Shown one piece after another: positions 22,005-60,915 of a stretch of DNA of 60,915 bases. Below the pieces are notes generated by a model. It was not told the origin of the DNA and searched no databases. It saw only the letters and a list, made by a program, of their open reading frames with translations. A program made the position numbers and the translations under genes. The stretch covers positions 1 to 60,915 of the forward strand of contig LRSL01000007.1 of NCBI GenBank assembly GCA_001563335.1, written 5' to 3'. Position 1 is the first letter of the stretch; each line of letters starts with the position of its first letter. The stretch comes from Candidatus Thorarchaeota archaeon SMTZ1-45. GTDB lineage: Archaea > Asgardarchaeota > Thorarchaeia > Thorarchaeales > Thorarchaeaceae.

Positions 22005-22640
22005 GTGCGATATTTGAGAACACGAATACTAGGATTATCTGGAAGTCCAAGGACCAGCAGTAATACAGCGATACTTGTTGAAACAGCACTCGAAGCAGCA
22101 GAGAGAGAGGGTGCCAAGGTTGAATTCATTGATCTCTCAGCTCTAAAGATTTTAGCTTGCGAACACTGTTGTGAGTGTTCTAAAACTGGGAAATGCAAGC
22201 TTGACGATGATTTGAACAAAGTTGCTGACACAATGAAGGCTGCAGATGGAATCATTATGGGGTCACCTGACCACTTTGCCTCTGTTGCCACACCACTGAA
22301 GAACCTCATGGATCGTACAGGTAGATTTCTTCATTTAGAGGGGAAGGTTGCTGCTGGTATTGTTGTTGGTCGACGATCTGGCCTAGACCTCGCTTTATCT
22401 CATCTTCTGTTCTTCCTATTGGTTAAGGAGATGATTGTCCCTGGCGCAATCTATTGGCCAATTGGGTTTGCATTGAATGCTGGTGACATCAGAGGAGATA
22501 CAGAGGCAATGGCGATGGCTACTCAACTTGGAGAACGGGTCACTATTCTGGCAGCAGCAATTATTCGAAACCCTATGCCTTGGGCACATGAACCTCGTCC
22601 TCTTGGTCAAAAGGTTCGTTTTGGTGATGAGTGGAAGTAA
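22005..22640 (+). CDS. iron-sulfur flavoprotein (Isf) / multimeric flavodoxin family
   Basis: GSPRTSSNT FMN loop, CEHCCECSKTGKC 4Fe-4S motif, KNLMDR. Confidence 0.9.
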   Translation: MRYLRTRILGLSGSPRTSSNTAILVETALEAAEREGAKVEFIDLSALKILACEHCCECSKTGKCKLDDDLNKVADTMKAADGIIMGSPDHFASVATPLKNLMDRTGRFLHLEGKVAAGIVVGRRSGLDLALSHLLFFLLVKEMIVPGAIYWPIGFALNAGDIRGDTEAMAMATQLGERVTILAAAIIRNPMPWAHEPRPLGQKVRFGDEWK

Positions 22641-22645
22641 CCCTC

Positions 22646-23035
22646 CTATGGTGGTGTTGTCGTTGCTTCGTATTTGCTCGGACATGAGGTTAGAATCTCA
22701 GTTGCATGTATAAGATATGCAGACTGTAGTGTGCCAATAGCTACAATATCTTGTCCATCTATCAGATTCGGTGTTTCTCCAAGTATCAAAACAGTAATTG
22801 TGTGGTTGTCACCTTCCATTACTAGGGTCACATTATCAATGGTCATTGTAAGAGATCCTGCCAAATATGCACCTTTGACCTGAATAGTCCTACCCATGTA
22901 TGGATTAGGATTTTCAACGACTTCATCCACACTAAGATATGGGTTACCAAATATGTCCAACATAGCAAATGCTACAAATCCAATTGTCGCTACTAAGATG
23001 ACTGCAATAGCTGCCATTTGTGTCTTCTTTTTCAT
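22646..23035 (-). CDS. ccmE: cytochrome c maturation heme chaperone CcmE, CxxxY type
   Basis: N-terminal TM, OB-fold region, C-terminal ATEILTSCPSKYE; ccm operon context. Confidence 0.92.
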   Translation of the reverse strand: MKKKTQMAAIAVILVATIGFVAFAMLDIFGNPYLSVDEVVENPNPYMGRTIQVKGAYLAGSLTMTIDNVTLVMEGDNHTITVLILGETPNLIDGQDIVAIGTLQSAYLIHATEILTSCPSKYEATTTPP

Positions 23036-23037
23036 CC

Positions 23038-23178
23038 CTATTGGTCTCCCTCAATCTGTCCCTCTACAATCTTGAGCTGCTTCTCAATTCCCATCATTCT
23101 CAATAGCAGATATACTAGGAATGCGAATATTCCACCCCAGAAGATAACGGCAACGATAAATAATTCAACTTGCTGCAT
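23038..23178 (-). CDS. ccmD: CcmD-like small membrane protein (46 aa)
   Basis: Manual translation MQQVELFIVAVIFWGGIFAFLVYLLLRMMGIEKQLKIVEGQIEGDQ; single TM plus charged tail, located between ccmC and ccmE; below the ORF-track cutoff. Confidence 0.8.
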   Translation of the reverse strand: MQQVELFIVAVIFWGGIFAFLVYLLLRMMGIEKQLKIVEGQIEGDQ

Positions 23179-23182
23179 TTCT

Positions 23183-23851
23183 CTAACTCCACGACATTCT
23201 AATTCTCATCAACTTCTCTTGCACTGAATCAACTTTGTATGTTAGGTCTATCAGGATTAAGGCTATCATGGTGACTGCAATCATAGAAACTATTAGTGTC
23301 ATTCCATGCTCTATCTCCATCTGTAGACCAGTCGGTTCAATAACAATTGGGTGTAATGTTTCCCAGATTCGAATCGAAAGGTAGCTTAATATCACCATCG
23401 GGAATGCTACTATTCCAAAGATTGATCCGAACTGTGCTCTTGACTCACGGTCACTGACTGATGCTCTGTATGCCAAAATGCACGCATATGCAACCCATAA
23501 AATGAGCGTTGTTGTTTCACGAGGATCCCAGTTCCAGGGAGTTCCCCAAGCTGCATCCGCCCACATCATTCCAGTGAGAAGTGTGATAGTTGTGAATAGA
23601 AGACCTAGCTTCAATGATGCTGCACCGAGGATATCATATTTCAAATCTCCTTTCCACAAGTACATCACTCCACAAATCAATGTGCCTCCAAAGGCTCCAT
23701 AGGCTACAAGTGCTGGGGCAACATGTTGGAAGAAAATTCGAATATATTCCAAAAGTTCTGCCTCAGGTGGGGCGAAAATCCATGTCATATAGACATAAAG
23801 AAAGGAAATCGCTGCTGTGATTCCGAGGAAGATCAGTCGGTTTCTACTCAC
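23183..23851 (-). CDS. ccmC: cytochrome c maturation protein CcmC
   Basis: IFFQHV, WWD domain TGMMWADAAWGTPWNWDPRET, TLHP. Confidence 0.95.
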   Translation of the reverse strand: MSRNRLIFLGITAAISFLYVYMTWIFAPPEAELLEYIRIFFQHVAPALVAYGAFGGTLICGVMYLWKGDLKYDILGAASLKLGLLFTTITLLTGMMWADAAWGTPWNWDPRETTTLILWVAYACILAYRASVSDRESRAQFGSIFGIVAFPMVILSYLSIRIWETLHPIVIEPTGLQMEIEHGMTLIVSMIAVTMIALILIDLTYKVDSVQEKLMRIRMSWS

Positions 23852-23920: not shown

Positions 23921-24601
23921 TCATGGTGAAAGTGCAAAATGGAAGACTGAGGCTGAAAGTGTCAACATTGCTATCATATGCGCAAGAAGAATTTCAAAAA
24001 TTAACAAGACAGGTATTAGACCCGGACCCAAGACAATGATTTTAGTAATCTCAATCAGAAGCATCAAACCCGAGGTTGCAGTGGGAAAGTATACAAGTGG
24101 AAACACAGTAGCTTTTGATTCTGATGGCATGGTAAGTGCTGAAGCCATGGACCCGACAGCTGCTAAATCTAGAGTTCCAACAAGAAACGTAGTAATTGCA
24201 AGAGGAATGTCATTAAGAAGTGAGAACCCAAATAGAACAGTTACAATCGGGATCAAGAATATCTCAACTACTCCCATTAAAAGAAATCCATAGATTACCT
24301 TTCCCAAATACACTGACCATGCTGGTATTGGTGCTGTAGCTAAACCTCGCAGAGTACCTGTTTCAGATTCAGATAGAAAGATTGGTGCAAATCCAAACAT
24401 TCCTGTAAAGAATATGATCACCCAAAGCAAGGCACTACCAATTTCTTCTGAAACTGAACCTCCAGTGACAACTGCAAAAGAAAATGCGAGCACCGCAATA
24501 AGCGCGAAAAGGAACATCGAGAATATTTCAAACTTCTTACGAAATTGAGAAAGAATATCTTTCTTCGCGATTGCTAATGCTGCACCAAGTCCAGATGTCA
24601 T
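23921..24601 (-). CDS. ccmB: heme exporter permease CcmB
   Basis: 6 TM, ESETGTLRGL...YLGK motif, follows ccmA. Confidence 0.9.
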   Translation of the reverse strand: MTSGLGAALAIAKKDILSQFRKKFEIFSMFLFALIAVLAFSFAVVTGGSVSEEIGSALLWVIIFFTGMFGFAPIFLSESETGTLRGLATAPIPAWSVYLGKVIYGFLLMGVVEIFLIPIVTVLFGFSLLNDIPLAITTFLVGTLDLAAVGSMASALTMPSESKATVFPLVYFPTATSGLMLLIEITKIIVLGPGLIPVLLIFEILLAHMIAMLTLSASVFHFALSP

Positions 24602-24610: not shown

Positions 24611-25300
24611 TCAGAGAGTTTGATCAAAATCAGAAATAGGACCTTGACTTATCACAATGCCCTTCCTTAACGTCACGTATTCATCACACAATGCTGCACC
24701 AAGAGCTAGATTGTGTGTAGTTATGATTGTGGTGCGCAAGTTTCTACACCCATTCAGATATTCCCAAAAATCCTCGGTCGTGTCTTTATCCAACCCACTG
24801 AATGGCTCGTCTAAGAGTAATAATTGTGGGTCGTGAATAAGACTTCGAACAATATCGAGCCTCTTCTTTAGTCCTGTCGACAGATTCTTCACAGGTTCTT
24901 CAAGCCATGATTTAATGCCAAACCATTGAGCCAAGTTTTCAACCTGAGATACAAAGAAAGTTGATGATAGACCAAAGAGTTTCGAATAGAACTTGAGATT
25001 CTCAACACCTGTTAGTTCTTCATACAGAAGTGGTTTATCTCCAACCAACCCAATGCGCTTCTTCACTTCTTCTGGCTCTTCCTGTGGGTCAAATCCCATA
25101 ACAGAGATAGATCCACCATGCGGTCGAAGTAGTGTGGAAATAACTCTCATGAGTGTTGTTTTCCCTGCTCCATTAGAGCCAAAAAGTCCATGAATTCCTT
25201 TCTCAGAAAATCCAAGTGTGACCTCTCGTAGAGCGACTCTGTAACCATATCTTCTTGTGAGGTTCTCTGCGATAATGGCCATATTTGACATCTGGATCAT
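24611..25300 (-). CDS. ccmA: heme exporter ABC ATPase CcmA
   Basis: GSNGAGKTT, LSTG signature, LLLDEPF; operon with ccmBCDE. Confidence 0.9.
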   Translation of the reverse strand: MIQMSNMAIIAENLTRRYGYRVALREVTLGFSEKGIHGLFGSNGAGKTTLMRVISTLLRPHGGSISVMGFDPQEEPEEVKKRIGLVGDKPLLYEELTGVENLKFYSKLFGLSSTFFVSQVENLAQWFGIKSWLEEPVKNLSTGLKKRLDIVRSLIHDPQLLLLDEPFSGLDKDTTEDFWEYLNGCRNLRTTIITTHNLALGAALCDEYVTLRKGIVISQGPISDFDQTL

Positions 25301-25371: not shown

Positions 25372-27102
25372 CTAGTGAAAGATTTTTCTTCCGAATCTAA
25401 GGAAAGGAGTTCCAATTGATAGAATCACAGAGATGGGTATAAGATTCACAAATTCCTGCACAACAAATCCTATCAAAACTCCCACAATGAACCAAACTAG
25501 GAAGCTTGTAAGATTATTCACAACTATCCAAGGTACATATGCTGTGAGAACGCTGGGTATTAACCACCATGCAAACATGATGGCTATTGGTACAATAAAT
25601 CCTGCAGCAAGCATAATGAGAATACCAATCCGTGTGCTAAGGTAGAGAGGTCCTGGAAAGACCTTGTGCGAATTAAGATACCCTTTTGAATCCGTCTTTT
25701 GTTTCAGGTTTGCCATCTTGGTATAGTCTTCCTTTCCATAGAATTTGCTTGAATGAGCAACATTCCACATTCCAATAGAGTATGCCCTTCCACCATTCTT
25801 CACGCCTATGTTGATCACATCCAGAGACCGATACCAACCAAATAGGAACGGAATTCTCCTGCGTTCATCATCTAGGAACCATGTCAGGACTGCAACCTCA
25901 TCTTGGTTGTTGACTGCTCCTTCAATTGCCATCCGTTCACCCTTAAAGTGTCGATTACAGTGGTCAATGAAATCATCCATTCTGTTAAGAGGGACATAGA
26001 CTTCTGAAGGAGCAAGACTCGGACCAAGTCGTTTGATTCTCATTGGGTAAAACCGTTCATCCCATTCGTGGTGAGCAATCTCTTCAGACTCTAGGGTTGC
26101 ATGATACATCTTCATTGCATTAATGATTCTCATCGCTTCATCTTCAGTCTGTTCTTCTGAGCCTTCAAATGCGCAAAGGACCAACCACTCATTCTGAGTG
26201 GAAGGCGCATGATCTACCTCCGTCAACATTCCATAGAACTCACTCGTTATGAAATGAAGATAGTATGGCTTAGACAACCGAAGAATTTCCTGCATTGCTC
26301 CAAAGGTCTGTTCCTGATTTGGGAATGAAAATAGAAGTGGTTTAATAGTCCGTAGTGGAATGACTTTCAATACAACTTTAGAAATTATACCTAAAGCCCC
26401 GTTACTGTCTACAAATAGCGAAGTCATATTCCCGTCAGTTTCATTGTAAACATCAGCTGCATACTGTAATTTCTCGTCACCTTTGAAAAATGGTTCTTGT
26501 GTTTCATCTTCAAAAAAGTCAGAAGGTGTATTCTCCGTCCTTATTATTTGTCCATCTGGTAAAACAACCTCAAGATCCACAACTTGTTCTCTTATTCCAC
26601 CATATTTCGTACTACCGATACCTGAACCTCCAGCTGCAACCCATCCCCCGACTGTACTCGATGGAGCTGATGAAGGATATGCAGCTAGTGTGAGGTCTTC
26701 TTCTTCAAGATCTTCGAGAAGTTTTCCCCAGATGATTCCTGCTCCTACTTCTACAGTCATTGCACCTTTGTTGATATGGAAAATCTGGTTAATCCTTGTC
26801 ATCTCAATGACGAGCCCACCCTTTGTGGGGAGAGCTCCACCATATCCAGAGGTTCCATGACCGCGAGGTATAACTGGTATATTTTCTTTCTTACAGAATT
26901 TCAAGAGGTTGGACAAAATCTCTGATGTAGTAGGTTGCGCTATTGCTTCCGCTTGGGTATTCATGACATCATTGACAATTCCTGGTAGTGCCGCAATATC
27001 ATGCGAATATAGATGAGTCATATATCCTTCTGCAGAGAAAAAATCCTCACCTACGATATCTGCCAATTGTTGGAAGTGTTTCTTATCTATCATTTTCGTC
27101 AC
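25372..27102 (-). CDS. FAD-binding oxidoreductase (VAO/GlcD-like) with C-terminal membrane hairpin, paralog A
   Basis: PRGHGTSGYGG, YPSSAPSSTVGG, GALGIISKV, two C-terminal TM helices. Confidence 0.88.
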   Translation of the reverse strand: MTKMIDKKHFQQLADIVGEDFFSAEGYMTHLYSHDIAALPGIVNDVMNTQAEAIAQPTTSEILSNLLKFCKKENIPVIPRGHGTSGYGGALPTKGGLVIEMTRINQIFHINKGAMTVEVGAGIIWGKLLEDLEEEDLTLAAYPSSAPSSTVGGWVAAGGSGIGSTKYGGIREQVVDLEVVLPDGQIIRTENTPSDFFEDETQEPFFKGDEKLQYAADVYNETDGNMTSLFVDSNGALGIISKVVLKVIPLRTIKPLLFSFPNQEQTFGAMQEILRLSKPYYLHFITSEFYGMLTEVDHAPSTQNEWLVLCAFEGSEEQTEDEAMRIINAMKMYHATLESEEIAHHEWDERFYPMRIKRLGPSLAPSEVYVPLNRMDDFIDHCNRHFKGERMAIEGAVNNQDEVAVLTWFLDDERRRIPFLFGWYRSLDVINIGVKNGGRAYSIGMWNVAHSSKFYGKEDYTKMANLKQKTDSKGYLNSHKVFPGPLYLSTRIGILIMLAAGFIVPIAIMFAWWLIPSVLTAYVPWIVVNNLTSFLVWFIVGVLIGFVVQEFVNLIPISVILSIGTPFLRFGRKIFH

Positions 27103-27105
27103 AAC

Positions 27106-28284
27106 CTATAGCCCTAGAGCTTCCACAACAATCTGCGACAAGTCCTTGAATTTCATTTTGGACTCCTTATGTTCTATTCCATCATTCAATGACATTGTAC
27201 ACGATGGACACTCACTCGCTAGAAACTCAGCACCAGTTTTCTCAGCCTCCTCGATACGTCGTCCAGAGATTCGCACCGACATCAGTGGATCAGTTCCTTT
27301 GAGTAGTCCGCCCCCTCCACAGCATCGTGCTTTGTTCCTGTTGTGTTTCAACTCTCGTACTTCTATTCCTGGGATTGCGTTCAATACCTCACGAGCTGGA
27401 TTATAGATGTCCTGATGACGTCCTAGTTCACAAGGATCATGCCATGCAACAACATGAGGATAGTTTTTGGTGAATTTTATCTTTCCTTCATTAAGAAGTC
27501 GTAGAACAAACTCTGAGAACGGAAGAAATTCCAATCCTTCTGTAGATTCCTTGCCAATTAGGTGAGGATATTCATGCGCAAAAGCTCTATGGCAACCAGG
27601 ACAATTGAAGATGACTGTTTTAACTCCGAGTTCTTTTAACTTGATGATGTTATGTCTAGCGAGTTCTTTAGCCTTCTCAAATCCTCCAGCAACGAAGTAT
27701 GGATTTCCACAACATTGTTCTTCTTCACCTAGTATCGTGAAATCAACTCCTGCTGCATTCATGACTTTGATTGTGTTTTCACCCATATGTGCAAGTGTCC
27801 CCTTGAACGAAATATTGCAGCCTGCAAAGTATGCCACCTCTGCTTCTATTCCTAATCGGTCTTCCACAAGATCATCAACCATGTCTGTCCAGAGTGTTCT
27901 ATCTGTCTGATCCATCTCCATGATATTCTGAGTTTCTTTCAGCGCTCCATCGATGTAGTTCACAATCTCTGGCCACTCATCAAGTTCACCAATCTCCTGA
28001 CGAGTGAGCTGCCAGAACCTCAAGAGAGGTATATTTGTCTGGCAAATCTCTTGACACGCTCCGCATAGTGTGCAATTGAAAATTCGAGCCGCAAAATCTG
28101 GTGGTATAGGTTGCTTCTTCTTGATGAGGTCTCTCAATTGATACAATTTGCCTCTGGGTGACTGAGAGTCCCATAGTGTATCAAGGTAAGCTGGACATAC
28201 GAATGTGCAAAAGCCACATCTTGCACATACAGTTGGCTCAATATCGAGCCCTTCAATTCTGAGGGGTTCGTAAGGCTTGGTCAT
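27106..28284 (-). CDS. Fe-S oxidoreductase, 2x[4Fe-4S] + two CCG domains (GlcF/HdrD-like), paralog A
   Basis: CARCGFCTFVCP, CTLCGACQEIC, QCCG..CPGC, HDPC..RCCG..CPSC. Confidence 0.92.
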   Translation of the reverse strand: MTKPYEPLRIEGLDIEPTVCARCGFCTFVCPAYLDTLWDSQSPRGKLYQLRDLIKKKQPIPPDFAARIFNCTLCGACQEICQTNIPLLRFWQLTRQEIGELDEWPEIVNYIDGALKETQNIMEMDQTDRTLWTDMVDDLVEDRLGIEAEVAYFAGCNISFKGTLAHMGENTIKVMNAAGVDFTILGEEEQCCGNPYFVAGGFEKAKELARHNIIKLKELGVKTVIFNCPGCHRAFAHEYPHLIGKESTEGLEFLPFSEFVLRLLNEGKIKFTKNYPHVVAWHDPCELGRHQDIYNPAREVLNAIPGIEVRELKHNRNKARCCGGGGLLKGTDPLMSVRISGRRIEEAEKTGAEFLASECPSCTMSLNDGIEHKESKMKFKDLSQIVVEALGL

Positions 28285-28299: not shown

Positions 28300-28812
28300 C
28301 TATGGCCACGGTATGCCAATCCAATCAAGAATTGGTTGTAAAATTGATGTACCATATACAGCTATTCCACCTAATGCTCCCATAATCATCATCATTATGC
28401 CGCCAAAGATGACAAGAATTGCATAGGGTGCATATGTTGAAAGTTTAAACCAAACGCGGTCTCCCATTTTAGCTCGGATTATCATCAGATAGAGATAGAT
28501 TTCAACGCAAACAACGGACCATAGGATCTTGAAACGCATAATTGGCATCTGGACCAGAGCATCCACAGGATAATCTGGTTCCATGAAACCTGTCACCATT
28601 CCCGCTATCAATCCTAGAAAACCAATGATGCTTCCGATGTAAATGAAGACATCAAACTGATGGAATAACCTAGCAAGTTTTGTACCCGGAGTATTGATGT
28701 TGTCTCTGAATAAGATCCGAAGCAGAAGATTGACCAAAGCCACTGCTGCGGCTGCTGTTAGAATTCCAGTGTGAAAGTGTACGAAAACTGGATGTATTAC
28801 CATTCTTTTCAC
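28300..28812 (-). CDS. DUF2231-like 4-TM membrane protein (possible heme b binder)
   Basis: IHPVFVHFHTG N-terminal motif, GGIAVYG C-terminal motif. Confidence 0.65.
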   Translation of the reverse strand: MKRMVIHPVFVHFHTGILTAAAAVALVNLLLRILFRDNINTPGTKLARLFHQFDVFIYIGSIIGFLGLIAGMVTGFMEPDYPVDALVQMPIMRFKILWSVVCVEIYLYLMIIRAKMGDRVWFKLSTYAPYAILVIFGGIMMMIMGALGGIAVYGTSILQPILDWIGIPWP

Positions 28813-28820: not shown

Positions 28821-29396
28821 TTAATCTCTCCTAAGTGCAAAGTATCCAAAGATCAACAGGATTACACCTGTGGCTAGTGGTACCAATACCATCATTGAAC
28901 CCCAAATCCCAATCAAGTCTGCTGGAGGGGGTGGAGTAGTTCCGGATTCTCCTGTGACTGTTACTGTGACATCAAAGGAGCGAGCAAGGTCTCCACCAGC
29001 GGCAGCCCAAATACGAATTGTGTATGTACCATTACTGATTGGTATGAACGTTATATCGACTGAAATTTCTCCATCGTTAGCATTAGTGTCATTAGTTGAA
29101 TCATCCTGAACTAAGGGTTCGGATATTGTGAAGTAATCGTTATCTGCCCATCCACCCTTAACTGCAATATATTCTGCACCATTTCCAGCATCAACCTGAA
29201 GTACAAATGGAACCCCGGTTTCTGCATCAACAGTAGAATTTGTTGTTAGGGTCAGTGTGGTCAATGTATCATGACATCCACTGTTACCACATTCACCTGT
29301 ATTGTCAGGAAATGCTACGACCGAACTTGCTGCAGCAATAACTAGAGTAAGGAAGCTCATGACCACTAATAGCTTCATGATATGGTTACGTTTCAT
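28821..29396 (-). CDS. secreted, C-terminally anchored protein with one CX4CH motif (putative monoheme cytochrome c)
   Basis: Signal peptide, ECGNSGCH, beta-rich domain, TTPPPP linker, TM helix + RR. Confidence 0.7.
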   Translation of the reverse strand: MKRNHIMKLLVVMSFLTLVIAAASSVVAFPDNTGECGNSGCHDTLTTLTLTTNSTVDAETGVPFVLQVDAGNGAEYIAVKGGWADNDYFTISEPLVQDDSTNDTNANDGEISVDITFIPISNGTYTIRIWAAAGGDLARSFDVTVTVTGESGTTPPPPADLIGIWGSMMVLVPLATGVILLIFGYFALRRD

Positions 29397-53218: not shown

Positions 53219-53227
53219 GATTATCTC

Positions 53228-53709: not shown

Positions 53710-53721
53710 AGTTTCAACATA

Positions 53722-53912: not shown

Positions 53913-53951
53913 GGACTCTATAGAAGTAAAATCAGAGGATGGTATTCTAGC

Positions 53952-54419
53952 ATGATGCAGAGTGAAAGATTGTTTGCGCAATTCATCCCCGTCTTAATAT
54001 GGGCAATATTAGCCATTGTTCTTGTTGTTGTAATGCTGCTAGCATCGTGGGTATTGCGTCCCCACGTGCTACAAAACTCTGAGAAGACTTCTACGTATGA
54101 ATGTGGTGAAGAACCAGTTGGTCCTGCAAGAATCTCCTATCCATACAACTACTTCATCTATACCGTGCTTTTTGTCGTTGTGGATGTTATGGGCGCTTTT
54201 CTCTGGCTTCTTTCATCCTCTAACATACTTTGGGTTGATGCTACTAAGTATACAGTCGTTTGGCAGGTGGCTGTCTTTATCCTAATAATCGTTGGTGGAA
54301 TCGCCTTTGTCATGAAGATGCTTCCGCAAGCAGCCTTGGATGGGAAAGAAACACTTGAGGTGTATCGAAAGGCGAAGGCTCAGAGGGAACAAGAACAGCA
54401 TGTTGCAGGAGGTCACTAA
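53952..54419 (+). CDS. nuoA: complex I-like subunit A
   Basis: EKTSTYECGEEP loop, YFIYTVLFVVVDV, 3 TM. Confidence 0.92.
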   Translation: MMQSERLFAQFIPVLIWAILAIVLVVVMLLASWVLRPHVLQNSEKTSTYECGEEPVGPARISYPYNYFIYTVLFVVVDVMGAFLWLLSSSNILWVDATKYTVVWQVAVFILIIVGGIAFVMKMLPQAALDGKETLEVYRKAKAQREQEQHVAGGH

Positions 54420-54421
54420 TC

Positions 54422-55072
54422 ATGCAAGAAAGTACTGCATTAGATCTGTTAGAACCTGGAGAATTCCTATTAATTGCAGGCATTATATTGATTCTTGCAT
54501 ATCTCGCACTTGAGCACAAAGAGATTGTCTATGCTGCATTCTTCTTTGGATTCATGGCATCATTTGTCGCGGGGATTTTTCTTCTGCTTGAAGCACCTTT
54601 TATCGCTGGAATGCAGATTGCAGTGTATACAGGAGGTATAAGCGCACTCATTATCTTTGCAGTTCTACTACTACCAAGAGCTCAAGATTCATCTCTAGAA
54701 GAGTTCTCATCACCACGAAAGCGCCAAATTGGGCTCATTATGGCCACCCTAGTCATAATACTCTCTGGTGTCCTTGCTTTTATCTTTCCATGGGCAGAGT
54801 CCTTTGATGATACTTTCATTGCTATATCAAATGACCTCAATGAACTTGCTCTATGGTTATGGGCTGACAATGGTATCTATGTTCAGATTATTGCCCTGAT
54901 TATGATTACCTCGCTCGTAGGTGCCATTGCGCTTCTGAAGATGGACAAAGCGGAACAACTCGTTTCTATTCGTGGCGAATTTGGAATTGAAGCTGAGCCA
55001 GAACTCCAGGAGCTAGATGTATTAGAGGATGAAGAACCTGACACAGAAGAACATGAGGAGGTTGATGACTAA
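54422..55072 (+). CDS. nuoJ: complex I-like subunit J
   Basis: LLEAPFIAGMQIAVYTGGISALIIF, LVGAIALL. Confidence 0.92.
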   Translation: MQESTALDLLEPGEFLLIAGIILILAYLALEHKEIVYAAFFFGFMASFVAGIFLLLEAPFIAGMQIAVYTGGISALIIFAVLLLPRAQDSSLEEFSSPRKRQIGLIMATLVIILSGVLAFIFPWAESFDDTFIAISNDLNELALWLWADNGIYVQIIALIMITSLVGAIALLKMDKAEQLVSIRGEFGIEAEPELQELDVLEDEEPDTEEHEEVDD

Positions 55073-55383
55073 TGGTCCCGCTCTCATGGTATCTTATTCT
55101 TGCATTCATGCTAATTGGATTGGGTGGCTACGGTATGATGGTCAAGAGGAATCTCATTAGAATCCTCATTGGAGCTGAAATCATGGGTAATGGTGTCAAT
55201 ATTGCACTTGTAGCCATGTCACTCTATAGTCCAGTATTTACATTCACAGGTCAAGGGCTGATTATCTTGATTATCTCTGTTGCCGCTGCACATACAGCTT
55301 TAGCTTTGGTTTTGATGTTGATGTACAACCGACGCTATGATACAGTTGACCTTGGACAACCAATCGTAATGGAGGAACCATAA
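55072..55383 (+). CDS. nuoK: complex I-like subunit K
   Basis: GGYGMMVKRNLIRILIGAEIMGNG, GQGL..SVAAA. Confidence 0.92.
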   Translation: MVPLSWYLILAFMLIGLGGYGMMVKRNLIRILIGAEIMGNGVNIALVAMSLYSPVFTFTGQGLIILIISVAAAHTALALVLMLMYNRRYDTVDLGQPIVMEEP

Positions 55384-55384
55384 G

Positions 55385-55912
55385 ATGTCAGACTCGTCTA
55401 CTATTAATGCTTCTACCTTTGGAAGACTCGTCATCAACAAAATTCCTGAGGTATCATCGAAGCCTCTTGATGGTAACAAGATTGAGCTTGTAGTACCTGC
55501 AAGTAGGATTCGTGACGTGGTCACCATTATTGATGAGGAAATCAATGATGCCCTCCCTGAGTCTGTCTTTGGCGTTGATCTTGAGAATGACAATTACGAG
55601 CTTATCTACATCTTCTGGTCTCACAACAACCGCTTGCTTGTTCAACTACGAGTATCCTTGCAAGGGGAGAATCCAGAGATTGAGAGCACTTGTGACATCT
55701 TTCCTGGTCTTGAATGGCATGAACGAGAGGTCAGAGAGATGTTCGGTGTAAATATCACGAATCATCCTGACCCACGGCTCCTTCTATTGCCTGACGAGTT
55801 GGAGGGTGTTTATCCTCTTCGCAAAAGGTTCCAGACAGATCAGAGCAGACTTGAGGAAACAGGAATATCGACTCCAAAACCAAGGGCAACATCGGGAGGT
55901 GAAGACAAGTGA
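55385..55912 (+). CDS. nuoC: complex I-like subunit C
   Basis: WHEREVREMFGV...HPDPRLLLLP...YPLRK. Confidence 0.93.
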   Translation: MSDSSTINASTFGRLVINKIPEVSSKPLDGNKIELVVPASRIRDVVTIIDEEINDALPESVFGVDLENDNYELIYIFWSHNNRLLVQLRVSLQGENPEIESTCDIFPGLEWHEREVREMFGVNITNHPDPRLLLLPDELEGVYPLRKRFQTDQSRLEETGISTPKPRATSGGEDK

Positions 55913-57045
55913 GTCCCGACATTCTTGAGGAAGCAATGGAAGTCTGGTTTGGTCCTCAACATGTGTCTGCACATGGTTGGGCAACAAAGTTGACACTCGT
56001 GGGTGACTATGTAGTTGAATGTGATCCCAATGCGGGCTACTTCCACCGCTCTGCTGAGAAGGTCCTTGAGTTCAAGAATTTTAGGCAAGGCTCACTGGTG
56101 TTGGAACGAATGTGCATGCTCGAGGCATTCTTGGCTGAATACCCGTATATTGCTGCAGTTGAGAAGATTTCTGAGGTTGAAGTTCCTGAGCGTGCGAAAG
56201 TCATGAGAACCATCATGATGGAGCTTTCACGTCTTCACAGTATCCAATTCTGGTGGGGCCAGTTCAATGCTGAGCTTGGTTTCTTCACAATGGCTCTATG
56301 GCCATGGGTGGACCGAGAGTATACACTTGACGCTTTTGAAGAATTAACAGGTTCACGACACACAGTTTCATACTCAACACCTGGTGGCGTGAAGTATGAT
56401 TTCTCTGACAAATTTATGAAACAACTAAACCGTGCAGTAGAGCGTTTTGAGGATAGACTACCCAAATTTAGAGACATGCAAATGGGAAGCCCAACCTTTA
56501 GGGCAAGAACTGAAAATATTGGTCTATATGATGTAAAACAGGGTCTCAAGTGGGGTCTGAGTGGTCCACCAATCAAGGCATGCGGAGTTCCCATGGACTT
56601 ACGAAAGGATGACCCAGATTCGAATCTAGCTTATGACATGGTTGACTGGGAGGTTCCTATCACAGAGAACCCTGAGCATCCAAGCCAGAGTGATGCGCTC
56701 GATCGTATGGAACAACGATTCAAGGAAGCTGAGGTTGCTGTTGAGATCATTAAGCAGTTGATTCCTCAAATACCAGAGGGTGACATTATAGACCCTAAGG
56801 CTCGGGCAAAGACTAACAGACTCCCTGAAGGAGAGGCTTATGGTCGAGTAGAAGGGACGCGTGGTATAACATCACTGTGGCTTAAGACACAAGATAAAGC
56901 ACAGACAGCATACCGCGCAAAGATTCGAGGTCCATGTATTGCTTCCTATTATGCGTTGAAGGACTTAGTGCCTGGTTCGAAATTTGCAGACTTCATTGTG
57001 ATATTTGGAAGCTTGGACCCATATCCAGGGTGGTGGGATCGCTGA
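55909..57045 (+). CDS. nuoD: complex I-like subunit D (lacks the NiFe CxxC pairs)
   Basis: FGPQHVSAHG, GYFHRSAEK, VPERA, ELSRLHS, GLSGP, EGTRG, GSLDPYPGWWDR. Confidence 0.92.
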   Translation: MSPDILEEAMEVWFGPQHVSAHGWATKLTLVGDYVVECDPNAGYFHRSAEKVLEFKNFRQGSLVLERMCMLEAFLAEYPYIAAVEKISEVEVPERAKVMRTIMMELSRLHSIQFWWGQFNAELGFFTMALWPWVDREYTLDAFEELTGSRHTVSYSTPGGVKYDFSDKFMKQLNRAVERFEDRLPKFRDMQMGSPTFRARTENIGLYDVKQGLKWGLSGPPIKACGVPMDLRKDDPDSNLAYDMVDWEVPITENPEHPSQSDALDRMEQRFKEAEVAVEIIKQLIPQIPEGDIIDPKARAKTNRLPEGEAYGRVEGTRGITSLWLKTQDKAQTAYRAKIRGPCIASYYALKDLVPGSKFADFIVIFGSLDPYPGWWDR

Positions 57046-57056
57046 TGGGAGGTGTC

Positions 57057-58196
57057 ATGTTGCAGTTCGATTTCTTTGCTTGGCTTGCTGGCATTCCACA
57101 ATGGCTTGAAGGTGTGTTCTACTGGATTTGGGGAATAATCAAGGGTGTCCTTCTCTGGATTTGGGCTTTCATTCAGCATTTGTGGATTACCATTTTTGAT
57201 CCAATTAATTTCATGTTCCTCTTCCGCGCAGTCTTGTTTCCAGGTCTTATTTTCGTGGTTATGGCTCTAATATGGGCTGTTTGGTTCACTAGGAAATTGT
57301 GGGGTCGCATCCAAGACAGACGCGGTCCTGTCCACCTGGGCAAGTATGGAGGTCTCCAACTATTTGCAGATGCTATCAAGCTAATTGCAAAAGAGAGCAT
57401 CATCCCAGATAATGCAAAACGTTGGATGTTCAGGTTTCTCCCTGGACTCCTTCTAGTTATTGTACTCTTACCATTCTGCTTTATTCCATGGGACTTCGAT
57501 TATTGGTATATCGCAGATCTTTCGGTAAGCCTTGTATTAGTCTTTGCTTTCCTGACTGCTGTACCCGTCATCGCACTTCTTGCTGGTTGGGTCAGTGGTT
57601 CGAAGTACTCTCTCATTGGTGGCTTTAGAGCTGCCAACAATCAGTTTGCAGCCGAGATTCCAATGATCATCTCGACGATTGGTCCAGCCTTACTCGCAGG
57701 GTCTCTCAGCCTGATGGGGATTGCTCAAGCTCAGCAATCAGTCTGGTTTGCAGCTTTACTACCAATCAACCTGGCTACTTTCTTGGTTGCTGCAATCGCA
57801 TCCGTAGGAATCTTTCCCTTCGATGCACCTGTTGCAGATTCTGAGATTATCTTTGGATGGAGGACAGAGTTCACTGGTATCTATTTCACACTCACATATT
57901 TCGCTGAGTTTGCAGAACAGATGCTATATTCAGCATTGATTGTTGCTCTGTTCTTAGGCGGACCAGTTGGTCTTCCATTCCTACCAGGTGCAGTGAACTT
58001 CATTATCAAGTTCATTATCACATTCTTCTTCTTTGTGTTGGTTAGTTCTTCATTCCAGCGACTCAGACAAGACCAGATAGTCCACTACTGCTGGAAGTAT
58101 TTGTTACCACTTGCGCTCTTGAACGTCATAATCGCAATGCTTGCGATAGTCTATCTTCCAGGACTGGCTGCATTGCTACCCATGGGAGGTGGATAA
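57057..58196 (+). CDS. nuoH: complex I-like subunit H
   Basis: RKLWGRIQDRRGP, GLQLFADAIKLIAKE, SKYSLIGGFRA, PFD, RLRQDQ; ATG 57057 follows GGAGGTG. Confidence 0.94.
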   Translation: MLQFDFFAWLAGIPQWLEGVFYWIWGIIKGVLLWIWAFIQHLWITIFDPINFMFLFRAVLFPGLIFVVMALIWAVWFTRKLWGRIQDRRGPVHLGKYGGLQLFADAIKLIAKESIIPDNAKRWMFRFLPGLLLVIVLLPFCFIPWDFDYWYIADLSVSLVLVFAFLTAVPVIALLAGWVSGSKYSLIGGFRAANNQFAAEIPMIISTIGPALLAGSLSLMGIAQAQQSVWFAALLPINLATFLVAAIASVGIFPFDAPVADSEIIFGWRTEFTGIYFTLTYFAEFAEQMLYSALIVALFLGGPVGLPFLPGAVNFIIKFIITFFFFVLVSSSFQRLRQDQIVHYCWKYLLPLALLNVIIAMLAIVYLPGLAALLPMGGG

Positions 58197-58199
58197 ACT

Positions 58200-58631
58200 A
58201 TGGGATTCTTCAGTGTATTAGGTGATTGCTTCCAGATTCTGAAACATACATTCAGACAAGTCTTCAAGAGACCGTTCACATACTTCTTCCCATTTGAGGA
58301 TAGAATCTACCCTGAGCGAACAAGAGGTAGGCACATCCATGTTCGCAAGAACTGCACAGCGTGTGCACAATGTGTACGCGCATGTCCTGTCGTAGCAATC
58401 AGGATGGACAAAGAAGACAAGATGTACGAGAAGGATTGTGCCTTATACTTCGACTACACAAGATGCATCTTCTGTGGGCTTTGCACTCAGGCTTGCAGGT
58501 TCGAGGCACTGTTTCACACTCCAGTCGTTGATTTGAGTGAAGGAGACCGTGAGGATCTCATCTATGGACCTGACAAGATTGAAACACTTGACAGAGACCC
58601 TCTAGAGTGGCGTGGAAGGAGGTTCCGGTGA
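58200..58631 (+). CDS. nuoI: complex I-like subunit I (2x[4Fe-4S])
   Basis: RTRGRH, CTACAQCVRACP, CIFCGLCTQAC. Confidence 0.93.
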   Translation: MGFFSVLGDCFQILKHTFRQVFKRPFTYFFPFEDRIYPERTRGRHIHVRKNCTACAQCVRACPVVAIRMDKEDKMYEKDCALYFDYTRCIFCGLCTQACRFEALFHTPVVDLSEGDREDLIYGPDKIETLDRDPLEWRGRRFR

Positions 58632-60188
58632 ATGCAAATCACAGAACTTCCCTTTGCAGCTCTCTCTTTGGCAGTGCTCTTCTTCGGAGGACTCCTTATC
58701 TATGTCTTCAAGGGCAGTCTGGATAAAACAGCTGGAAGAGTCGCGGTTGGATTCTCAGGAATCGCTTCCCTCTTGATGGTGTATCCTTTCTATCAGGTGG
58801 TAACAGGAGCTCTACCGGAGTATACGGAGTTTGCCACTTGGTCCGGACTTCTGGAGCAGTTCGGTCTCAGGCTTGATGGCATTGCTTTTCCAATCACATT
58901 TGCAGTGGTCGTGCTTGGATTTCTCTCAGTCGTCTATGCTGTTGGTTATACAGAGCATAGCGAGAATAGGGCTACCTTCTTTGCCAACCAGCTCTTCTTC
59001 CTGATGGGCATGCAGTGGGTGACCTTGGCAACTAATTTGATCGAATTCTTCATTGCGTGGGAATTGATGCTAGTACCAGCATACTTCCTTATTCTGTTCT
59101 GGGGGTTGCCTGAAACTCGAAAACGGACTGCTTTGAAGTTCTGGCTTTATACGCAATCTGGTGCTGTCTGTATCCTGGTTGGTTTTGGCATTCTCTACTC
59201 ATTGACAGGTTTCTTTGACTTGGCATCATTGCAGGGAGCTGTTGACTTGCTTGATCTCCACGAAGTGCTCCCAGGATTGGGAATAGACATTGGCGCTATT
59301 CTGAGGGTTGTATTCATCCTTCTCGGAGCAGGATTCTTGGTTAAGATGGCGGTCTTTCCCATCCACTGGTGGCTCCCACCTGTTCATGCTGAGGCACCCA
59401 CACCAATCTCAGTACTTCTTTCAGGTGCCATGATTGAGACTGGTGCTTATGCCTTGATGCGGTTTGGTAGCATTACACTCTGGGATGCAGCATACGCGCT
59501 GTCATTCTTTGTTGCTGCATTAGGAGTCATAACCATGTTCTATGGTGGATTCATGGCTCTAGCCCAGATTGACATCAAGAGACTCTTAGCATACTCGTCG
59601 GTTTCACAGATGGGCTATGTTCTTTTTGCCCTTGGTACATACTCACCCATGGGCTTCGAAGGAGGTATGTTCCATCTCATCAACCATGCCTTCTCCAAAG
59701 GATTGTTGTTCATGACCGCAGGTGCAGTCATACATCAGACTGGTCTTCGTGACATAACGAAGATGGGCGGTCTCTCAAACAAGATGCCAATCACTGCATT
59801 TGCTGCTGCAATTGGCATGATGAGCATTGCTGGCAGTCCTCCTCTCTCTGGCTTTGCAAGTGAGTGGATGATGTTCCTTGGTGGATTCCAGAGGGCTGTT
59901 TGGCCTGGCTCTAATCTAGCTTTCCTCATTCTAACAATATTTGCAGTTTCAAGTTCAATTCTCAGTGCAGGATATATGCTGCGTTTCTTCTGGAAGGTCT
60001 TTCTCGGCTCTCACCCTGATGAGCTCGAAGACGTGAAAGAGAGTTCCAATTCTATGACAATCCCTATGATCATACTTGGAATCCTCATAGTGATCTTTGG
60101 AATATTCCCAGGACTGGCACTGGATGTCATTGTCCCGGCGATAACGAACCTAGTACCGTGGGACCAGCTCGGTCTAATTCTCCCATGA
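58632..60188 (+). CDS. nuoM: complex I-like antiporter subunit M
   Basis: FFIAWELMLVP, VKMAVFPIHWWLPPVHAEAPTP, DIKRLLAYSSVSQMG, NHAFSKG. Confidence 0.9.
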   Translation: MQITELPFAALSLAVLFFGGLLIYVFKGSLDKTAGRVAVGFSGIASLLMVYPFYQVVTGALPEYTEFATWSGLLEQFGLRLDGIAFPITFAVVVLGFLSVVYAVGYTEHSENRATFFANQLFFLMGMQWVTLATNLIEFFIAWELMLVPAYFLILFWGLPETRKRTALKFWLYTQSGAVCILVGFGILYSLTGFFDLASLQGAVDLLDLHEVLPGLGIDIGAILRVVFILLGAGFLVKMAVFPIHWWLPPVHAEAPTPISVLLSGAMIETGAYALMRFGSITLWDAAYALSFFVAALGVITMFYGGFMALAQIDIKRLLAYSSVSQMGYVLFALGTYSPMGFEGGMFHLINHAFSKGLLFMTAGAVIHQTGLRDITKMGGLSNKMPITAFAAAIGMMSIAGSPPLSGFASEWMMFLGGFQRAVWPGSNLAFLILTIFAVSSSILSAGYMLRFFWKVFLGSHPDELEDVKESSNSMTIPMIILGILIVIFGIFPGLALDVIVPAITNLVPWDQLGLILP

Positions 60189-60198
60189 GGTGACACAG

Positions 60199-60915
60199 AT
60201 GCTATTCGGACTACCCTATTATCTAATCCTCGTCATTCCCTTGGGCGGCGCATTATTAATTCCACTAGTTGGAAGGTTTAGTGAAAAAGCAAGAGACTGG
60301 ACACCAGCATTCTTCATGGGTATTGCAATGATCCTATGTTGGTCACTTCTTCCTGATATCGGAACGACCGAGAACACCAGCTGGATGTGGATCGCTCAGC
60401 TTGGTCTTGAGTTCAGCGTCCTGCTTGATCCACTTTCCGTCATCATGGCTATTCTTGCTAGCACACTCTGTTTCCTCATCTATGTCTATAGCACAGAGTA
60501 CATGGCTCATGATGAAGACCGTATGCGCTTCCACTTCCTAATGCTCACCTTCGGAGGTGGAATGCTCACACTTGTTCTGAGCAACAACCTGCTGATTGGG
60601 TTTATCGGATGGGAGATAATGGGCTTCTGTTCCTACGGTCTCATCGGTTTCTGGAACGATAAGAGGAATCCACCTGAAAAAGATCCAACTGGCTATGAGC
60701 AGACCAATCCCTTACTCCAGTGGGAGACCGAGGGCAACTACAACAGCTACTGCGGCACAAAGGCATTCATCGTCACAAGAATTGGTGATGCCTTCATGCT
60801 GGGTGGTATCCTGTTGTTGTTCGTGTTCACTCAGACATTCATGTTCTCTGAGATGGCTGACCCAGCAGCCTCTAACCATTGGTGGGAAAATATGTCTAAT
60901 GTAGGCTTGCTGATT
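60199..60915 (+). CDS. nuoL: complex I-like antiporter subunit L; runs off the window edge
   Basis: Manual translation from ATG 60199 (after GAGGTGA): LDPLS..YSTEYMAHD..FIGWEIMGFCSYGLIGFW..KAFIVTRIGD. Confidence 0.92.
   Translation, partial: MLFGLPYYLILVIPLGGALLIPLVGRFSEKARDWTPAFFMGIAMILCWSLLPDIGTTENTSWMWIAQLGLEFSVLLDPLSVIMAILASTLCFLIYVYSTEYMAHDEDRMRFHFLMLTFGGGMLTLVLSNNLLIGFIGWEIMGFCSYGLIGFWNDKRNPPEKDPTGYEQTNPLLQWETEGNYNSYCGTKAFIVTRIGDAFMLGGILLLFVFTQTFMFSEMADPAASNHWWENMSNVGLLI

Follow-up and report, generated by a model that had tools for sequence, protein, structure and literature searches.

A putative menaquinone-centred electron-transport gene cluster with a flavin dehydrogenase-NuoB fusion in a Thorarchaeia genome

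The stretch of DNA analysed here, called the window in what follows, comprises 60,915 nucleotides of contig LRSL01000007.1 (assembly GCA_001563335.1) from Candidatus Thorarchaeota archaeon SMTZ1-45, and from mutS to its end it is a near-continuous series of membrane redox genes. An earlier note, made by a model from the sequence, had described positions 22005 to 60915 as a self-contained respiratory cluster encoding a whole chain, from cytoplasmic dehydrogenases over a menaquinone pool to surface cytochromes c. We scanned 38 open reading frames (ORFs) from position 19168 onward and 22 upstream against Pfam, and 36 ORFs against NCBIfam, and searched the ORFs for haem motifs and hydrophobic helices; nearly every item of gene content named in the note was borne out. 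The sole nuoB of the window proved to be fused to a GlcD-like flavin adenine dinucleotide (FAD) dehydrogenase, in a lineage-restricted protein. We read the whole, with slightly better than even confidence, as a Thorarchaeia-specific, modular, menaquinone-centred electron-transport cluster, that is, an anaerobic respiratory chain linked to menaquinone and fed by a new input module. The genes from mutS onward are as follows.

19168-21768, minus strand: mutS, bacterial-type mismatch repair, left neighbour of the cluster
22005-22640, plus strand: flavin mononucleotide (FMN) reductase-like flavoprotein (PF03358, E 3e-32)
22646-23035, minus strand: ccmE (Pfam CcmE)
23038-23178, minus strand: ccmD candidate, 46 residues with one helix, at the expected place of ccmD
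23183-23851, minus strand: ccmC (Pfam Cytochrom_C_asm)
23921-24601, minus strand: ccmB (Pfam CcmB)
24611-25300, minus strand: ccmA-like ABC ATPase (Pfam ABC_tran)
25372-27102, minus strand: pair 1, GlcD-like FAD dehydrogenase with four C-terminal membrane helices
27106-28284, minus strand: pair 1 partner, HdrD/GlcF-like, 2x[4Fe-4S] and 2xCCG
28300-28812, minus strand: DUF2231 four-helix membrane protein (PF09990, E 3e-5, just under cut-off)
28821-29396, minus strand: 191-residue surface-anchored protein with a single haem motif (CX4CH)
29596-31317, minus strand: pair 2, GlcD-like FAD dehydrogenase with three membrane helices
31314-32507, minus strand: pair 2 partner, CCG protein
32613-33956, minus strand: amine-oxidase/HpnE/phytoene-desaturase-like flavoprotein (PF01593, E 7e-37; HpnE 119 bits, under cut-off)
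33977-35101, minus strand: pair 3, CCG protein
35111-36589, minus strand: pair 3 partner, soluble GlcD-like FAD dehydrogenase
36579-37790, minus strand: 403-residue protein (c403), extracytoplasmic Ig-like domains with CX3CH and four-helix membrane part
38107-39507, plus strand: OcwA-like multihaem cytochrome c with C-terminal anchor, seven CXXCH
39665-41836, plus strand: 723-residue surface protein, AGE-like barrel and Ig-like domains
41857-43929, plus strand: ccmF, CcmF/NrfE-type haem lyase (PF01578, PF16327; TIGR03145 and TIGR00353 under cut-offs)
43941-45233, plus strand: prenyl (geranylgeranyl) reductase family, GG-red-SF (TIGR02032, 240 bits, cut-off 159)
45234-46289, minus strand: polyprenyl synthase
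46402-47466, plus strand: menA (TIGR00751, 131.0 bits, cut-off 102.15)
47468-47989, minus strand: PNPOx-like protein
47958-49220, minus strand: six-helix DUF7530::PNPOx-like membrane protein
49270-50496, minus strand: CCG4, HdrD-like, divergent from the fusion gene
50709-52649, plus strand: GlcD-like FAD dehydrogenase::NuoB fusion, 646 residues (PF01565, PF02913, PF01058)
52649-53218, plus strand: small four-helix membrane protein, its start overlapping the fusion stop
53228-53593, minus strand: small four-helix membrane protein
53952-54419, plus strand: nuoA
54422-55072, plus strand: nuoJ
55072-55383, plus strand: nuoK
55385-55912, plus strand: nuoC
55909-57045, plus strand: nuoD
56934 or, more likely, 57045 to 58196, plus strand: nuoH
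58200-58631, plus strand: nuoI
58632-60188, plus strand: nuoM
60190-60915, plus strand: nuoL, cut by the window end

The four pairs of FAD dehydrogenase and CCG protein counted in the note lie at 25372-28284, 29596-32507, 33977-36589, and 49270-50496 with 50709-52649. Its menA, prenyl synthase and prenyl reductase were recovered at 43941-47466, and its nuoAJKCDHIML at 53952-60915 with nuoL cut, the nuoB carried by the fourth FAD protein having been missed. The longest nuoH ORF overlaps nuoD by 112 bases, and relatives as well as the Pfam match favour a start at 57045 or 57057. The statement that almost no unrelated genes intervene needs qualifying: seven genes of uncertain role lie between the modules, namely those for the FMN reductase, the amine-oxidase-like protein, the 723-residue protein, two PNPOx-like proteins and the two small membrane proteins at 52649-53593. 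For neither of the latter two was a Pfam family found in a relaxed search (E up to 1), and both are kept alongside the fusion in relatives.

In the fusion protein, FAD_binding_4 and FAD-oxidase_C domains are followed by NuoB, and the window holds no free nuoB. The NuoB part (residues about 490-630) scores 173 bits against the NCBIfam NuoB model NF005012, whose cut-off is 116, and matches NdhK, PSST and Nqo6 at E values of 1e-39 to 1e-42 (136-148 bits), the match to the small subunits of the MBS and MBH complexes being weaker (99-100 bits). In an alignment of the window protein with 37 relatives, 72-94% identical to it, the ligands of iron-sulfur cluster N2 (C512, C513, C577 and C607) are kept in 38 of 38 rows; they align with the CC, C and CPP motifs of NdhK, which identifies this half as a NuoB. 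A hydrophobic helical stretch at about 444-501 lies between the halves; in two paralogues, the beginning of the membrane tail aligns with it. The membrane tail of the pair 1 dehydrogenase contains no His.

Among the matches listed, 46 relatives carry both FAD and NuoB Pfam domains: 45 have 615-667 residues (72-94% identity) and one is a partial protein of 539 residues. Where the organism is named, 14 of 15 rows are Candidatus Thorarchaeota and one is Hodarchaeota. An exhaustive HMMER search of 1.84 billion representatives confined the two-domain fusion to one 50%-identity family. Among the best 150 representatives a single one, 77% identical, spans both halves, the others matching one half, and Pfam found both domains together in none of 15 further proteins (12 two-stretch matches and three others). 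The matches inspected also include an unfused Thorarchaeota copy (56% identity) and a tandem NuoB protein. The closest relative of the flavin domain outside the Thorarchaeia-like group (P0361, 867 residues, 40% identity) is fused to a quinone-interacting membrane domain of the NrfD/PsrC type. Because both the fusion and this NrfD::flavin protein exist, the flavoprotein subfamily appears to have been joined repeatedly to quinone-side membrane modules.

The best solved matches of the flavin part are LctD of the lactate dehydrogenase/Etf complex (7QH2; E 2.5e-26) and mitochondrial D-lactate dehydrogenase (8JDB). Like GlcDEF, YdiJ-type enzymes and LctD, the window dehydrogenases combine FAD_binding_4 with FAD-oxidase_C and are paired with a protein of two [4Fe-4S] clusters and two CCG units; unlike them, three of the four window copies bear C-terminal membrane helices or NuoB. 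All four CCG proteins carry Fer4_8 and two CCG stretches and so belong to the HdrD/GlcF type.

The CCG protein encoded divergently from the fusion, CCG4, is a predicted partner of its flavin domain. Complex prediction with flavin residues 1-450 (38-row alignment) and CCG4 (25-row alignment) scored 0.89 in three of three runs, the best of three controls scoring 0.00; this mark is reached by 116 of 157 solved complexes and by 2 of 215 mismatched pairs. The runs share at least 97% of contacts, the partner has a predicted local distance difference test (pLDDT) value of at least 90, and the predicted contact places CCG4 residues 13-88, a two-cluster domain with eight ferredoxin-type Cys, on the FAD-binding domain. 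A sequence search found no solved GlcD/CCG complex, so a memorised structure is not an obvious explanation for the score; the best solved match of CCG4 is a single chain (9OJN_A), followed by HdrB chains (E 1e-14), and its NCBIfam score for TfrB is 157 bits. GlcD-CCG single-chain fusions are common among homologues of the fusion. The prediction lends support to binding of CCG4 to the fusion flavin domain, and a paralogue could reach an equal score.

Of the canonical membrane arm, made up of A, H, J, K and the antiporter-like L, M and N, the remaining nuo genes supply NuoA, H, J, K, M and L, the window stopping within nuoL and the loci of relatives reaching no further than nuoM. Domains of NuoE, F or G were found in none of the 60 window ORFs scanned, that is, the canonical NADH module was not detected. 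NuoD aligns over its full length with chain L of 6U8Y (E 1.5e-57), its best solved match, and with Nqo4 of T. thermophilus (E 7e-50). The equivalent of Nqo4 His38 is kept; Asp86-Tyr87 is replaced by Cys-Met in nine of nine Thorarchaeia rows. The motif reads ER[ML]CM in the window and eight Thorarchaeia loci and ERVCL in two other Asgard loci; the three bacterial NuoD rows all keep the quinone-ligating Tyr (D/N-Y). Thorarchaeia NuoD form a tight group, with 61 rows among the matches listed, the full-length ones 72-90% identical. Beyond it, the Tyr is absent from five NuoD clusters at 45-49% identity and present in five at 34-38%. We rejected the idea that NuoD is a hydrogenase subunit: only the first Cys of the NiFe motif is present (ERMCM), and the C-terminus (DPYPGWWDR) contains no Cys, so the NiFe site is gone. 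Because NuoD does not have the canonical Tyr, quinone as the acceptor of the pump is inferred from gene context and not from the active site.

With no NuoEFG in the window and no Tyr87, the complex falls outside canonical complex I. It resembles the eleven-subunit Nuo/Fpo-like complexes of archaea without NuoEFG or FpoF in having no NADH module, an HdrD-like neighbour and a menaquinone gene context. It differs from them in the fusion of NuoB to an FAD dehydrogenase, the gene order A-J-K-C-D-H-I-M-L, the Cys-Met for Asp-Tyr in NuoD and the two extra conserved small membrane proteins. Examples from that group are the Fpo-like complex proposed to work with HdrD in Methanomassiliicoccales and the Nuo complex of Sifarchaeia and Jordarchaeia cited below. 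With MBS and MBH (6U8Y, 6CFW), respiratory complexes derived from group 4 hydrogenases, the window complex shares the best match of NuoD and the first NiFe-motif Cys; unlike these, it has no C-terminal NiFe Cys pair, its membrane arm is of Nuo type and its NuoB part is nearer to complex I.

A genome scan anchored on menA, with one genome per species, gave 79 loci, of which 34 are labelled Thorarchaeota or Promethearchaeota and a few are unlabelled archaeal bins, the rest coming from other archaea and bacteria; locus ORFs were assigned to window proteins by best blastp match. The best menA loci belong to metagenome-assembled genomes of Thorarchaeota (up to 86% identity). In a quick MenA tree the window sequence falls in a set of 15 rows with Thorarchaeota-labelled, Promethearchaeota-labelled and unlabelled members (SH-aLRT 100), both labels lying within the kingdom Promethearchaeati (Asgard). 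The 26 organism-named rows of the cytochrome family described below are Thorarchaeota (21), Promethearchaeota (4) and Odinarchaeota (1). Together with the labels of the fusion rows, these results uphold the note's placement of the host in Thorarchaeia. Three Chloroflexota MenA (L028, L030, L032) are 56-57% identical to that of the window, as close as many from Thorarchaeia; despite this likeness, the tree keeps 35 Asgard MenA rows together (SH-aLRT 99).

A core of prenyl reductase, prenyl synthase, menA, CCG4, fusion and nuo genes recurs in 15 of 22 informative relatives, those with at least 5.8 kb downstream of menA. Three others show CCG4 only, and end early or are filled by giant ORFs of the 191-residue protein family; four are of the arrangement called type C below. 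MenA exceeds its curated equivalog cut-off and is thus a MenA, and the polyprenyl synthase has Ala and Ser at positions -5/-4 of its first DDxxD, small residues that suggest a product longer than C20, suited to a quinone tail. In the 15 Thorarchaeia-type loci menA lies within 10 kb of CCG4 and the fusion. Elsewhere, in L033 and L066, which come from other Asgard archaea, prenyl reductase, synthase and menA are divergent from a nuoABCDHIJK operon that is free of the fusion. The nuo operon of the bacterial loci L035 and L037 encloses menA, placed between nuoH and nuoI, and in a third bacterial locus (L059) menA lies directly downstream of nuo genes. Since menA recurs beside nuo genes both in Thorarchaeia and outside, menaquinone is kept as the most likely acceptor.

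Around this core, three arrangements were observed. In type A, which resembles the window, the order is c403, cytochrome, 723-residue protein, ccmF, reductase, synthase, menA, PNPOx, DUF7530, CCG4, fusion, two small proteins and nuoA onward (L003, L009, L010 and L057; in part L004, L006, L008 and L016). In type B, mutS stands beside the prenyl reductase, followed by the same core through nuoM (L002, L005, L012, L013, L021, L024, L025, L026, L031 and L041); L019 and L045 are mixed. In type C, the order is 723-residue protein, ccmF, FMN reductase, ccmEDCBA, reductase, synthase, menA, dehydrogenase pairs, DUF2231 and the 191-residue family, with no fusion within 10 kb (L014, L015, L017, L018, L029, L055 and L069). 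Among the listed loci, 15 have the DUF7530::PNPOx-like gene and 14 have the PNPOx-like gene.

The gap between mutS and prenyl reductase measures 25-3163 bp in 13 loci, against 22,172 bp in the window; in these 13 relatives mutS is thus the constant gene on the left of the quinone/nuo core, and the 22-kb block at 22005-43929 is missing from that place. Comparison of synteny, proposed in the note as a check, therefore upheld the core and not the cluster in its full extent. The 15-row MenA set mixes loci with the cytochrome module (L003, L009) and loci without it (L002, L005), and L002 has the most similar menA (86%), yet no 22-kb block. The cluster consists of a conserved core and an accessory block of 22 kb, which is present in some close relatives and absent or displaced in others. 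We do not call the block a mobile element: no tRNA gene was found in the window, the search for direct repeats flanking the block gave nothing convincing (only short two-copy families), and GC content is even across the block (0.40-0.45), without a composition shift.

The note had proposed three surface cytochrome candidates. The cluster has one multihaem cytochrome (38107-39507), and two other proteins (36579-37790 and 28821-29396) each have a single C(X3-4)CH motif. The cytochrome has seven CXXCH motifs in 466 residues, about 0.002 being expected from the Cys and His composition of the cluster, and no other window ORF of at least 60 codons has more than one. Its true start is probably near 38152; in the longest ORF, the family consensus sets in at residue 16. 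OcwA (6I5B) is the best match in the Protein Data Bank to a profile built from 71 members of the family (E 1.3e-22), and nine motif positions align in order. Positions 1-4 and 6-8 are CXXCH, kept in 68-71 of 71 members. Position 5, in the place of the CXXCK haem of NrfA, reads C-M-H-C-M, with both Cys and the His in 71 of 71 and the final Met in 69. Position 9 is C(X2-11)CH in all 71, the spacing being 5 in 43 rows. The nine positions of the window protein are thus seven CXXCH, one CXXCM and one CX5CH. Foldseek likewise ranked 6I5B ('Outer Cell Wall Cytochrome OcwA') at the top (E 5e-8, TM 0.41, about 19% identity), a result from a weak model that we use only as agreeing with the sequence searches; from the weak AlphaFold2 models of cytochrome and fusion, only the secondary structure of confident stretches was taken.

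OcwA is a cell-surface terminal reductase of Thermincola potens with nine haems, c554-like 1-4 fused to NrfA-like 5-9, and a three-helix bundle, and it has slow activity on nitrite and hydroxylamine (PMC6703420). The window cytochrome resembles it in the nine ordered motif positions, the succession of c554-like and NrfA-like parts and a probable three-helix bundle, three confident helices spanning residues 329-428. It differs in CXXCM instead of CXXCH at position 5, in C(X2-11)CH at position 9, and in a C-terminal hydrophobic helix, present in 71 of 71 members, as an anchor in the archaeal membrane. Pfam matches Cytochrom_C552 to residues 271-430, and the NCBI pipeline names many relatives 'ammonia-forming cytochrome c nitrite reductase'. 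Membership in NrfA was rejected: there is no CXXCK, and the score for NrfA in NCBIfam reaches 28 bits, the cut-offs of the models being 595-692. The protein automatically annotated as NrfA is OcwA-like.

Several surface proteins accompany the cytochrome. The 403- and 191-residue proteins are related: both combine a signal peptide and Ig-like domains with a single C(X2-4)CH. In the C-terminal four helices of c403, five His are kept in five of five rows, the C..CH spacing being 2, 3 or 4, and this membrane domain is a plausible candidate for a dihaem-b, quinol-oxidising link between menaquinol and cytochrome c. Neither this domain nor the N-terminal part has a Pfam family (relaxed search, E up to 1); in the Atlas, c403 belongs to a cluster of 66 members whose commonest label is Thorarchaeota, and the feature search there gave nothing else. 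The DUF2231 protein, with HPVFVHFHTG kept in four of four full rows, is a candidate quinol/haem-b module. These two proteins are the b-haem membrane candidates of the note, a plausible assignment.

The 191-residue protein has a signal peptide, an Ig-like domain, a Thr/Pro linker and a C-terminal helix, and again no Pfam family (relaxed, E up to 1). C(X2-4)CH is kept in 10 of 10 rows of its family, whose relatives include ORFs of 766-1483 codons with Thr/Pro-rich stalks and C-terminal anchors. Giant ORFs with a single haem motif lie between CCG4 and the fusion in four loci (L009 14268-18716, L016 7835-12088, L045 13857-17900, L006 8201-12800), in all of which a signal peptide and one C(X2-4)CH are accompanied by a long Ig-like region, a stalk rich in Thr and a C-terminal anchor. 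A 27-base repeat, 74% identical and sharing ATTTTAGTTACA, occurs at 29410-29436 and 37918-37944, upstream of both single-haem-motif genes of the window; it could be a shared regulatory site or due to chance.

The 723-residue protein was rejected as a cytochrome, having no haem motif. It is surface-anchored and has an AGE-like (alpha/alpha)6 barrel, Ig-like domains and a helix at the C-terminus, and the Atlas structural search aligned it to GlcNAc 2-epimerase clusters (TM 0.75-0.85 by target); the relaxed Pfam search (E up to 1) and the Atlas feature search returned nothing. It always precedes ccmF (eight loci), and the trio of cytochrome, 723-residue protein and ccmF recurs in relatives; the protein may serve maturation or have a surface role.

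The contiguous ccmABCDE and the ccmF of the note were found, with the reservations that ccmD is a candidate only, with no Pfam family in the relaxed search (E up to 1), that the ORF at 22005-22640 is FMN-reductase-like and not a ccm gene, and that all NCBIfam ccm matches stay under the equivalog cut-offs. CcmE carries C[PS]SKY (CxxxY) in six of six rows, which we take to mark the Cys variant of System I, with Cys replacing His, of archaea and some bacteria. The window agrees with that variant in having ccmA, B, C, E and F, no ccmG or ccmH, and C-P-S-K-Y in CcmE; it departs from it in that ccmF lies 16.6 kb from ccmABCE and follows the gene for the (alpha/alpha)6-barrel protein. The FMN-reductase gene is head-to-head with ccmE in the window and in L014, L017, L029, L055 and L069; its product may serve haem or iron reduction during cytochrome maturation, or be a quinone reductase.

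The question arises as to how these parts would work together. The core (43941-60915) would make a prenyl tail and attach it to naphthoquinone through polyprenyl synthase, MenA and prenyl reductase, and would build a Nuo-type complex of A, J, K, C, D, H, I, M and L without NuoEFG. The fused flavoprotein and CCG4 would form an electron-input module replacing NuoEFG or FpoF: an organic substrate of 2-hydroxyacid type would reduce the FAD of the fusion, electrons would pass to the [4Fe-4S] clusters of CCG4 and on to the NuoI/NuoB chain, with ferredoxin at NuoI as a second possible donor, and the complex would reduce menaquinone with ion translocation. The accessory block would add two membrane-anchored and one soluble GlcD-like/CCG dehydrogenase, the anchored pairs also feeding the menaquinone pool, while its His-rich membrane proteins would oxidise menaquinol. 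Surface single-haem proteins and the OcwA-like cytochrome, matured by the System I machinery, would then carry electrons to the outer face and to an extracellular or soluble acceptor. Of the whole chain claimed by the note, quinone, cytochrome c and dehydrogenase parts are present. The gene identities, the lineage-restricted fusion, the conserved motifs and the synteny are shown, and the contact of flavin domain and CCG4 is supported by a model; the joining of the modules into one chain, its substrate, acceptor and direction, and extracellular electron transfer are inferred.

More tentatively, and as a possibility that we would not favour on present grounds, the core may encode an undescribed relative of complex I, a flavin dehydrogenase welded to NuoB with an HdrD-like cap, that couples organic-acid oxidation directly to ion pumping and menaquinone reduction. 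In a subset of species the movable 22-kb block, with an OcwA-like cytochrome bearing a Met-type (CXXCM) haem position and with long single-haem surface proteins, would then extend the chain to the surface and endow an Asgard archaeon with extracellular electron transfer or direct electron exchange with a partner.

A number of results weigh against the menaquinone-linked chain. Besides the replaced Asp-Tyr of NuoD, the best match of this subunit is 6U8Y, presumably a sulfane-sulfur-reducing MBS complex. That the cluster is self-contained, as the note has it, is not supported: the Pfam and NCBIfam scans found no genes for the naphthoquinone ring, haem synthesis or a specific acceptor among the window ORFs. 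Among the 19 loci that extend at least 9.7 kb upstream of menA, eight show ccm genes and 11 have mutS next to the reductase without ccm. Four of the 22 downstream-informative loci place menA beside dehydrogenase pairs, and neither CCG4 nor the fusion follows within the next 10 kb; ccm genes are seen in two of the four as well. The fusion residues aligned to the GHVGDGN and GEHGIG motifs of D-lactate dehydrogenase differ, and motifs of the GDGN/GEHG type, which we take to be substrate/metal-site motifs, are absent in all four window FAD paralogues, unlike in GlcDEF, YdiJ-type enzymes and LctD. The four score 122-144 bits against the GlcD equivalog TIGR00387, about a quarter of its cut-off of 568, and so fall outside GlcD proper, and every other NCBIfam equivalog score of theirs likewise stays far under its cut-off; because of these differing motifs and low scores, we keep the label 'GlcD-like' and leave the substrate open. 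The AlphaFold2 models are poor (fusion, pLDDT 58 with the NuoB part below 50; cytochrome, pLDDT 61), so that cofactor distances in the fusion are not measurable and the cytochrome model gives no cofactor geometry. We know of no precedent for CXXCM as a haem motif, and position 5 may be empty. Finally, the midpoint potentials of lactate/pyruvate (about -190 mV) and menaquinone (about -74 mV) imply that the step from a hydroxyacid to menaquinone could not drive pumping at the full stoichiometry of complex I; the gap might be bridged by a co-donor of low potential, by a smaller pumping ratio or by a reversible reaction.

Four other explanations are considered. The Nuo-type complex may not be a quinone reductase at all: it could oxidise ferredoxin or a flavin substrate, reduce a disulfide or sulfane sulfur at CCG4 or at an altered NuoD/NuoB site, and pump without menaquinone, in the manner of the Fpo-like/HdrD idea for quinone-free methanogens or of MBS. 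This is what the change of Tyr87 to Met and Asp86 to Cys, the absence of the Tyr also from the five next-closest NuoD clusters (five more distant ones keep it), and the match to 6U8Y_L would lead one to expect, and CCG is the disulfide-reducing module of HdrB, which CCG4 matches along with TfrB. Such a complex would be less easily reconciled with menA, prenyl synthase and prenyl reductase adjoining it in 15 of the 22 informative loci, with the quinone genes that two further Asgard loci have beside a nuo operon free of the fusion, with the retained His38 equivalent, with membrane subunits A, J, K and H of Nuo and not of Mrp type, and with a NuoB part that scores higher against complex I/NDH-1 than against MBS/MBH; we regard it as improbable, though deserving attention. 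We find it similarly improbable that the cytochrome reduces a soluble substrate (nitrite, hydroxylamine or a sulfur oxyanion) in detoxification or ammonification and is no extracellular outlet. Its Cytochrom_C552 match and the names given to its relatives point that way, NrfA chains rank after OcwA in sequence and fold searches, and OcwA itself has the slow activities mentioned. The place of the catalytic haem of NrfA is taken by the conserved CXXCM, however, CXXCK is missing, Pfam and NCBIfam found no partner of nrfH or nrfBCD type in the window, and the genes that accompany it encode surface-anchored single-haem proteins, the longest of them with 1483 codons.

That the modules (maturation, dehydrogenases, quinone synthesis, Nuo) were gathered by rearrangement and work separately seems to us more doubtful still. 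Order and content do vary, with three arrangements, the block absent between mutS and prenyl reductase in 13 loci, and a well-supported MenA set that includes loci with and without the cytochrome; against this, each arrangement again brings the same modules together around menA, all of them serve membrane redox functions that need a shared quinone, and the fusion physically ties a dehydrogenase to the pump. Least likely, in our view, is a chain running inward, in which surface cytochromes would take electrons from a partner or mineral into menaquinone and Nuo would drive reduction of ferredoxin or an oxoacid, feeding the Wood-Ljungdahl pathway. All named components are reversible in principle, and the small potential gap between hydroxyacid and menaquinone would fit a reversible enzyme; CODH/ACS is, moreover, described in Thorarchaeia (10.1101/385732). 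This direction would need another source of the ion gradient, the window shows no donor-specific gene, and the sequence itself gives no direction. The menaquinone-linked chain remains the reading that we prefer.

Current models make Asgard archaea other than Heimdallarchaeia fermenters, acetogens or syntrophs that depend on hydrogen. The note's remark that these lineages are mostly modelled as fermentative or acetogenic agrees with the literature: in one report, Thorarchaeia are treated as lacking an electron transport chain, its components being 'missing or incomplete' in Loki- and Thorarchaeia (10.1101/385732). Heimdallarchaeia complex I-like enzymes have been modelled as hydrogen-evolving, those of Thorarchaeia not being treated there (10.1101/2024.07.04.601786), and a Nuo complex without EFG acting with menaquinone has been proposed for Sifarchaeia and Jordarchaeia (PMC9723677). 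A full-text search found no paper pairing 'Thorarchaeota' with 'NuoB', and neither the fusion nor c-type cytochromes of Thorarchaeia were described in the papers that our full-text searches covered. Parts of the cluster already bear public labels ('NuoB', 'nitrite reductase c552'); the architecture and its meaning are, as far as these searches go, new. A conserved quinone-linked pump with a new input would revise the picture of a very widespread Asgard class, as would surface cytochromes in some of its species, and both would bear on partnership models of eukaryote origin, including those based on electron or hydrogen exchange. The GlcD::NuoB fusion offers a natural experiment in input-module swapping by complex I-type enzymes, and CXXCM, if occupied, would be a new haem c ligation.

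The region upstream of the cluster contains a second redox gene array: four paralogous genes resembling zinc-type alcohol dehydrogenases/quinone oxidoreductases lie on the minus strand at 469-1497, 2887-3864, 4777-5760 and 5959-6942, interleaved with small membrane proteins of the DUF6326 (1460-1834) and DUF4386 (3877-4575) families. An ORF at 7020-7511 gives a strong full-length match to DUF7000 (E 3e-57) and adjoins a flavodoxin-like gene at 8175-8687. Bacterial-type mismatch repair is represented in this Asgard genome by mutL (12629-14425) as well as mutS (19168-21768). At 10680-11216, on the minus strand, a 178-residue methyltransferase weakly matches the eukaryotic histone methyltransferase family DOT1 (PF08123, E 9e-9).

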